A stretch of 64,000 nucleotides of DNA from an uncultured Bacilli bacterium (GTDB lineage: Bacteria > Bacillota_I > Bacilli_A > RFN20 > CAG-826): assembly GCA_944358985.1 (NCBI GenBank), contig CALVSI010000002.1, forward strand, positions 51,413 through 115,412. Reading direction: 5' to 3'. Both the position numbers and the translations under genes were made by a program. Position 1 is the first letter of the stretch. Each line of letters opens with the position of its first letter. The notes under the pieces are model-generated. The model ran no database searches, was not told the DNA's origin, and was given only the letters and a program-made list of their open reading frames with translations. This document shows, piece after piece, positions 26,322-26,444 of the stretch.

Positions 26322-26444
26322 TTATTCGTCTTCAATTTCTTCAAATTCGCTCGCGGGATATCCACATACTGGACAAGTGAAATCTTCTGGCAATTCTTCT
26401 CCCTCATAAACGAATCCGCATATTTTGCAACGCCATTTTTTCAT
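26322..26444 (-). CDS. Mini rubredoxin-like protein (40 aa, CxxCG...CPxCG). Absent from the ORF track.
   Basis: Hand translation: [40 protein letters not shown]. Strong GGAAAGGAG RBS 8 nt upstream. Last gene of the flavodoxin-flavoprotein operon. Confidence 0.65.

Follow-up and report, generated by a model that had tools for sequence, protein, structure and literature searches.

In classical rubredoxins, such as those of P. abyssi (1yk5), P. furiosus (1bq8) and Clostridium pasteurianum (4rxn, 5rxn), the two cysteine knuckles CxxCG and CPxCG are separated by 29 residues. The Desulfovibrio desulfuricans protein (6rxn), at 45 aa, is presumably the shortest natural rubredoxin to have been characterised, and PDB chain 1spw, entered under the name rubredoxin with 39 residues, is taken here to be an engineered, loop-truncated form of Desulfovibrio gigas rubredoxin, in which case its solved structure shows that a loopless rubredoxin folds. 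A short connection between the knuckles is also found in the C-terminal domain of rubrerythrin (PF21349; D. vulgaris, 1ryt and 1b71), where it is fused to a diiron four-helix bundle. Rubredoxin domains are further found fused to Flavin_Reduct domains, in what we take to be the Hrb-type "high-molecular-weight rubredoxins". Trichomonas vaginalis FDP-F, a self-sufficient oxidase, contains a short rubredoxin domain of the rubrerythrin type, which has an Fe(SCys)4 center at -56 mV and is placed between an NROR-like flavin domain and the flavodiiron domain (PMC9364112). The redox potentials of short domains range from about +213 to +281 mV in rubrerythrins to about -56 to -67 mV in FDP-F proteins (PMC9364112), a spread that makes the potential of the protein described below not predictable.

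The window analyzed here, that is, the whole stretch of 64,000 nt (28.8% G+C, genetic code table 11), encodes a 40-aa protein, referred to below as mini-rubredoxin, that is almost certainly the product of a real gene and of rubredoxin fold. Its gene looks like the last of an apparent four-gene unit on the minus strand, with its own ribosome-binding site and terminator. The features of the unit are as follows:

26253-26288, minus strand: intrinsic terminator, a ACACCACG..CGUGGUGU hairpin followed by UUUUU
26322-26444, minus strand, stop codon counted: mini-rubredoxin gene, 40 aa, C-x2-C-G-x13-C-P-x-C-G, stand-alone and short-loop
26455-26463, minus strand: Shine-Dalgarno sequence GGAAAGGAG, its GGAG core ending 10 nt 5' of the ATG at 26444
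26482-27651, minus strand: HI0933-like FAD-binding oxidoreductase, 389 aa, candidate redox partner, separated from the mini-rubredoxin gene by a 37-nt gap
27666-28211, minus strand: YfcE-type metallophosphoesterase/phosphodiesterase, 181 aa (PF12850, Metallophos_2, 92.4 bits; NF006988, 211.5 bits)
28212-28718, minus strand: Flavodoxin_4-family protein, 168 aa (PF12682, 78.3 bits), first gene of the four-gene unit

The translation of the ORF is exactly that given in the initial annotation, with both knuckles present (C6KIC9G and C24PVC27G) and a spacing of 14 residues from C9 to C24. The ribosome-binding site and the hairpin terminator that had been proposed for it were also found. AAAGGAG or GGAGGA occupies the equivalent Shine-Dalgarno position at five homologous loci (L008, L019, L103, L014 and L016), and a longer reading of the gene from a TTG at 26453 (43 aa) was rejected, as this codon lies only 1 nt past the Shine-Dalgarno sequence and the homologues begin at the ATG, all with MKKW. 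The terminator hairpin has an 8-bp, G+C-rich stem (26285-26260) that starts 36 nt 3' of the mini-rubredoxin stop codon, and its folding energy of -14.1 kcal/mol (z -3.35) was equaled by 0 of 200 shuffled sequences. A hairpin and T-run are likewise located 3' of the orthologues in L008/L019, L103 and L014, with hairpin sequences that are unrelated to one another. A scan of the whole window against Rfam at gathering thresholds detected no RNA family anywhere, so nothing of this kind competes with the mini-rubredoxin ORF. The hairpin at 26260-26285 also scored as terminator-like on the plus strand, where its tail is T-poor; as it lies between a convergent plus-strand gene (24956-26062) and the minus-strand operon, it may serve as a bidirectional terminator.

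Within the unit, the gaps are 0 nt between the flavodoxin and phosphoesterase genes, 14 nt between the phosphoesterase and HI0933-like genes and 37 nt between the HI0933-like and mini-rubredoxin genes, and a second terminator-like hairpin is located 5' of the flavodoxin gene at 29013-28983. With terminators at both ends, the four genes look like one transcription unit, in keeping with the earlier view that the ORF terminates an operon whose upstream members are a flavodoxin, a phosphoesterase and a flavoprotein. By its spacing the phosphoesterase gene appears to belong to this transcription unit, and no functional tie to mini-rubredoxin is evident. The HI0933-like protein scored 131.8 bits against PF03486 (cut-off 50) and 227.6 bits against TIGR00275 (cut-off 183.8), and it carries the N-terminal GxGxxA/G FAD motif as VGGGYSA at residues 6-12. 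Its matches to solved members of the family are all distant (2i0z, 68.6 bits; 4cnj, the AAO, 64.4 bits; and 2gqf, HI0933 itself, 55.7 bits). Members of the HI0933 family (PF03486/COG2081) do not share one function: E. coli RdsA/YhiN, an FAD enzyme that oxidizes NADH, synthesizes dihydrouridine in 23S rRNA and depends on both FAD and NADH, and the remaining characterized members are BaiN and aminoacetone oxidase (PMC11317573).

Two rubredoxin models recognize the 40-aa protein. PF21349 (RUBY_RBDX) scored 50.4 bits against a cut-off of 26.5, with residues 4-35 covering positions 1-30 of the 30-position model. PF00301 (rubredoxin), the profile with which the initial annotation had proposed checking the ORF, scored 33.2 bits against a cut-off of 23, the match being split into two stretches by the absence of the central loop. 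In phmmer searches of the PDB, the first 20 residues of mini-rubredoxin pair with the first 20 of classical rubredoxins, and its residues 15-39 pair with their residues 30-54, with target residues ~21-29 skipped; this two-stretch alignment indicates a rubredoxin lacking ~14-15 loop residues. The N-terminal 13-20 and C-terminal ~24 residues align to the classical proteins at high identity (segments of 13 and 21 residues in 1yk5), and both the knuckles and the acidic C-terminus are shared, whereas the loop spanning residues ~16-30 is absent from mini-rubredoxin. Classical rubredoxins have a spacer of ~29 residues in a chain of 45-55 aa; with a 14-residue spacer and a total of 40 aa, mini-rubredoxin lies below both values and is shorter even than the D. 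desulfuricans protein of 45 aa. The aromatic core is retained, with W4, F11, Y13, F22 and F34 corresponding to Y4/W4, Y11, Y13, W37 and F49 of classical rubredoxins. The truncated chain 1spw was matched over query residues 4-36 (E 2e-6); the two are of nearly equal length (39 and 40 aa), but 1spw is presumably an artificial deletion mutant, whereas mini-rubredoxin belongs to a natural, selected gene family.

The rubrerythrin C-terminal domain provides the best-scoring model, and the C-termini of 1ryt and 1b71 are matched contiguously and share the short inter-knuckle connection. Mini-rubredoxin is nevertheless a stand-alone protein of 40 aa, scoring 33.5 bits against the 200-bit cut-off of NF045767, and it is not a rubrerythrin because it is without the diiron four-helix-bundle domain (NF045767/PF02915). 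The spacer of 12 residues in the L012 rubrerythrin fragment (CRNC-x12-CPVC) also differs from the 14 found here, and in residue identity mini-rubredoxin is nearer to the free rubredoxins than to the rubrerythrin domain. Two further identities were rejected: the RCKP-type rubredoxin-like domain (NF045720), with 19.2 bits against a cut-off of 45, and desulforedoxin (PF06397), with 14.2 bits against a cut-off of 23 and a second cysteine pair that in mini-rubredoxin is C-x2-C rather than two adjacent cysteines. The features of the stand-alone C-x2-C-x14-C-x2-C family, namely a length of 37-50 aa, the x14 spacer and a consensus including A..FEE, are all present. As read from its residues, the protein is therefore best described as a short-loop rubredoxin, with knuckle hairpins that resemble those of free rubredoxins and a connection of rubrerythrin-domain length. 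An AF2 model built from a 57-sequence alignment has a mean pLDDT of 92.7 and strands at residues 3-6, 12-14 and 34-37. When this model was compared to the PDB with Foldseek, the best 50 matches all contained a rubredoxin or rubrerythrin domain, with query TM scores of 0.71-0.81 and rmsd values mostly near 2 Å; the predicted fold superposes on classical rubredoxins at ~2 Å.

The mini-rubredoxin gene is under strong purifying selection. Within the species, four DNA haplotypes differ at three variable sites, all of them synonymous. Comparison to the sister species revealed 16 synonymous and 5 non-synonymous differences, corresponding to a pS of 0.76, which is saturated, and a pN of about 0.05 (0.04-0.05); for the pair of mini-rubredoxin genes with a computable dS, dN/dS is ~0.02. 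Across 57 aligned stand-alone relatives, C6, C9, G10, G15, P19, C24, P25, C27 and F34 are invariant, and the 40-aa protein is 54-90% identical to the other 56. The initial annotation had staked its reading on conservation of the ORF, and of the four cysteines in particular, in syntenic regions of related genomes, and the reading held when this comparison was made. Its description of the ORF as a rubredoxin-like small protein is now strongly supported by the PF21349 and PF00301 matches, by the way the protein aligns with rubredoxins of solved structure and folds in prediction, and by its invariant cysteines and purifying selection.

The same note had called the ORF unannotated, and this does not hold. 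In public assemblies of metagenomes and genomes, 58 blocks already have a gene call for the identical protein, with the four-gene arrangement throughout, and relatives carry source names such as "rubredoxin-like domain-containing protein" (NCBI, for a 44-aa Bacilli MAG protein), "rubredoxin" (JGI, 50 aa) and "hypothetical protein". The impression arose from the length threshold of the ORF track on which that note was based. Here the length filter of an ORF track passed over a real gene of 40 codons that is under selection, a useful reminder for small-protein annotation. A phmmer search of 1.84 billion cluster representatives returned 2,268 proteins at E≤0.001, and a profile search returned 6,378 at E≤1e-5. 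Among the best 120 of these 6,378, 64 are no longer than 50 aa, and all but one of these (63/64) have the x14 spacer; stand-alone mini-rubredoxins with this spacer are abundant in anaerobe and gut metagenomes. The 40-aa protein belongs to the same family as the NCBI "rubredoxin-like domain-containing" x14 mini-proteins and shows no difference in kind from them. It is thus a further member of an abundant and already catalogued type of small protein, set apart only by its position beside an HI0933-like gene. A search of the available literature found no characterized natural stand-alone short rubredoxin, nor any link between HI0933 proteins and rubredoxins. We know of no biochemical study reporting the metal content or redox behavior of a natural stand-alone x14 mini-rubredoxin.

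The phmmer matches show that the module is often present in multiple copies (2-30) or fused to other domains. The closest single-copy fusions are C-terminal domains of Flavin_Reduct proteins, which are 69-76% identical to the module, and other single-copy fusions were found once each with an Fe-hydrogenase fragment, a 4Fe-4S/LysM protein and an EamA transporter. Three to five copies of the module occur in many proteins of ~300 aa, and much larger tandem arrays were also observed: P0007 (2,564 aa) has 30 matched stretches, and P0048 (1,957 aa) and P0008-P0017 also carry tandem copies. These tandem-module proteins could be multi-iron "wire" proteins. A 397-aa aminotransferase-like protein (P0158) placed in the 90% cluster of the ORF has no similarity to it and was set aside as a clustering artefact.

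An HI0933-like gene is linked to mini-rubredoxin in four lineages: the window species, L103, L014/L015 and the sister species. In the window species the HI0933-like gene is followed by mini-rubredoxin directly, as described above. The same order is found in L103, with a 72-nt gap and an HI0933-like protein 68% identical to that of the window, and in L014/L015, with a 66-nt gap, an HI0933-like protein that is 38-39% identical and all other neighbors different. In the sister species (L008-L011 and L019-L022), the HI0933 and mini-rubredoxin genes are separated by a 131-aa membrane-protein gene and gaps of ~180-250 nt. The L014 HI0933-like protein groups with those of L104 and L106 (52-54% pairwise identity) and not with the window clade, so the adjacency spans two HI0933 clades that are 38-41% identical. 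The linkage has clear limits. L104 and L106 have the HI0933-like gene and share the amylase...Flg_new neighborhood of the window, and mini-rubredoxin, flavodoxin and phosphoesterase are all absent from them; L107 also has an HI0933-like gene and no mini-rubredoxin. An HMM scan of 80 distant metagenomic HI0933-like loci (25-37% identity) found no mini-rubredoxin within flanks of up to 3 kb, and linkage to mini-rubredoxin is therefore not general among HI0933 proteins. A Rosetta-stone test found no HI0933-rubredoxin fusion among the best 120 HI0933 homologues, and a scan of genome contigs with the HI0933-like protein recovered a single locus, L007, in an uncultured-bacterium MAG of the same species, and so added neither taxonomic nor syntenic range.

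The other members of the unit accompany the pair less widely. The flavodoxin gene is found beside it only in the window species and the sister species, and was undetected in L103, L014, L104 and L106. The phosphoesterase gene accompanies the pair in L103 as well, and is absent beside it in L014. From the adjacency of the genes, the initial annotation had envisaged a compact electron-transfer chain formed by the flavodoxin, the HI0933 flavoprotein and the rubredoxin; comparison of the loci supports only the HI0933 link, within a narrow group of lineages, and support for a chain running from flavodoxin through flavoprotein to rubredoxin ends at co-transcription in two closely related species. 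The sister species has a further insertion, a gene for a 549-554 aa VanZ/Big_2 protein that separates the phosphoesterase gene from HI0933, and its 131-aa predicted membrane protein (L008 5422-5817, with equivalents in L009-L011 and L019-L022) has no Pfam match.

Relatives of mini-rubredoxin are also found in other surroundings. The gene directly follows a rubrerythrin gene in L012 and also, with a 30-nt gap, in L108-L112, an independent lineage that is a sporulating Firmicute. These mini-rubredoxins (L012 1-348 and L108-L112 4432-5120) are 38-39 aa in length and lie 30 nt 3' of a rubrerythrin that has its own short rubredoxin domain. In L013 the gene follows a canonical rubredoxin, and in L016-L018 it lies between DUF3810 and ABC-transporter genes. 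Within the window, the mini-rubredoxin HMM matched only the 26322-26444 ORF, with no second match, and Pfam scans of 20 further ORFs, a subset of those in the window, found no rubrerythrin, FDP or SOR.

As a whole, these observations are best explained by a genuine mini-rubredoxin gene whose product is an electron carrier, with the HI0933-like FAD protein as its likeliest partner; we put the probability of this reading at roughly 0.7. The protein is predicted to consist of two Cys-knuckle beta-hairpins joined by a 14-residue connection, as opposed to the usual 29, and its four cysteines would bind one iron as Fe(SCys)4. A role as a redox carrier is probable, and in such a role mini-rubredoxin would carry electrons one at a time, with a flavoprotein on one side and an acceptor on the other; across the family, the module may take electrons from flavoproteins, with rubrerythrin or flavodiiron proteins among the acceptors that it serves. 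The working logic, from flavin to Fe(SCys)4 to acceptor, would be that of the Flavin_Reduct/rubredoxin fusions and the class F FDP module, except that mini-rubredoxin is a chain of its own and that the flavoprotein encoded next to it is HI0933-like, an FAD protein of another family than Flavin_Reduct.

A partnership between the HI0933-like protein and mini-rubredoxin is plausible, although a direct interaction of the two can be proposed only tentatively. It might take either of two forms: the HI0933-like enzyme may be a reductase that uses NAD(P)H to load mini-rubredoxin, or mini-rubredoxin may re-oxidize or reduce the FAD of the HI0933-like enzyme. We know of no HI0933-family enzyme that has so far been linked to a protein electron carrier. 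It seems rather unlikely that, in the low-GC gut bacteria of this clade, the two make up a two-component redox system of their own; if they did, the pair would represent either a new, non-canonical NAD(P)H:rubredoxin oxidoreductase or an HI0933-family reductase, of the rRNA dihydrouridine or C=C type, that is fed by rubredoxin instead of NADH.

Other explanations differ in how far they depart from this reading. The most radical, that the ORF is a chance, untranslated frame in AT-rich DNA, draws on its length of only 40 codons, but a chance frame would not be expected to pass the cut-offs of curated families, to show a saturated pS alongside a pN of 0.04-0.05, or to retain four cysteines in all 57 relatives together with a Shine-Dalgarno sequence and a terminator 3' of the gene; the family cut-offs, selection and invariant cysteines effectively refute it, and its probability is negligible. 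The gene could instead encode a mini-protein of the zinc-ribbon type that has the rubredoxin knuckle fold in common with rubredoxins but is structural or regulatory rather than redox-active, for example as an accessory subunit or as a binder of nucleic acid or protein. Zn is often bound by four-Cys knuckle folds, many Zn-ribbon families gave weak matches below threshold, and an RNA-related accessory role is conceivable given that RdsA of the HI0933 family acts on rRNA (PMC11317573). All of the Zn-ribbon matches nevertheless fall below their cut-offs while the two rubredoxin families exceed theirs, the protein retains the glycines of CxxCG and CPxCG as well as the five-residue aromatic core, and the fusion partners and neighbors of the family are redox proteins, which together make a zinc-ribbon role very improbable.

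The main alternative accepts the carrier and questions only the partner: mini-rubredoxin may be a general-purpose protein whose partners, such as rubrerythrin or another peroxide- or oxygen-detoxifying enzyme, or another reductase, are encoded elsewhere, the HI0933 adjacency being no more than inherited gene order. Family members placed directly 3' of rubrerythrin in two independent lineages and beside a canonical rubredoxin in one are in line with this, as are the Flavin_Reduct rather than HI0933 domains of the closest fusions, the 80 distant HI0933 loci and the syntenic L104 and L106 that do without mini-rubredoxin, and the extra gene and long gaps in the sister species, where a TATAAT-like box lies upstream of mini-rubredoxin. 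Inherited gene order does not sit well, however, with an adjacency that persists over two HI0933 clades ~39% identical while every other neighbor differs, and no rubrerythrin was found among the scanned ORFs of the 64-kb window. We regard partners encoded elsewhere as somewhat unlikely, and continue to favor an electron carrier whose likeliest partner is the HI0933-like protein.

Only the recurrent pairing of mini-rubredoxin with an HI0933-like gene is modestly new, and the finding does not overturn current understanding. The recurrent position of the gene after an HI0933-like gene does lead to a testable hypothesis on the physiological electron partner of HI0933-like flavoenzymes, a non-isofunctional family that is poorly understood. 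As natural counterparts of engineered minimal rubredoxins, the mini-rubredoxins may also offer very small redox modules.

Several further features of these loci were observed. In L103 (6806-9185), an NAD-binding epimerase-like gene (~335 aa) and a gene for a 4Fe-4S dicluster protein (~305 aa) are located directly 3' of mini-rubredoxin and are followed by a small Metallophos_2 gene. In L014 (7990-9923), epimerase-like and dicluster genes lie ~1.9 kb 3' of mini-rubredoxin, and the dicluster protein is a Flavodoxin_5-Fer4 fusion. The trio of epimerase, dicluster and Metallophos_2 genes is found in the window ~12 kb away (12086-14034, minus strand, and 9972-10406, plus strand), past ABC-transporter and surface-protein genes. 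The trio could be part of a wider redox neighborhood or merely reflect shared synteny. Two window proteins have zinc-ribbon-like motifs and are unrelated to rubredoxin by HMM: a 459-aa protein without a Pfam match (18792-20171, plus strand), with an N-terminal CxxC...CxxC motif, and an SPFH/Band-7 protein (35948-36904, minus strand), with a single CxxC...CxxC motif. A 202-aa GTG-initiated ORF (24949-25557, minus strand) is fully antisense to the 368-aa Listeria-Bacteroides-repeat surface-protein gene (24956-26062, plus strand) and is probably spurious.

Strains of the same species differ in the interval that separates the terminator of mini-rubredoxin from the gene for the Flg_new surface protein. 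A gene for an AAA_14/DUF4143 ATPase (442-447 aa) occupies it in L001 (6283-7617), L003, L004 and L006, and is absent from the window (26063-26252), L002 and L005. Other strains or species have further copies 5' of the flavodoxin gene or of HI0933 (L001/L004 2308-3564, and L019-L022), and the copy in L019 adjoins a phage-type integrase. The AAA_14/DUF4143 ATPase gene looks like mobile or hypervariable cargo.
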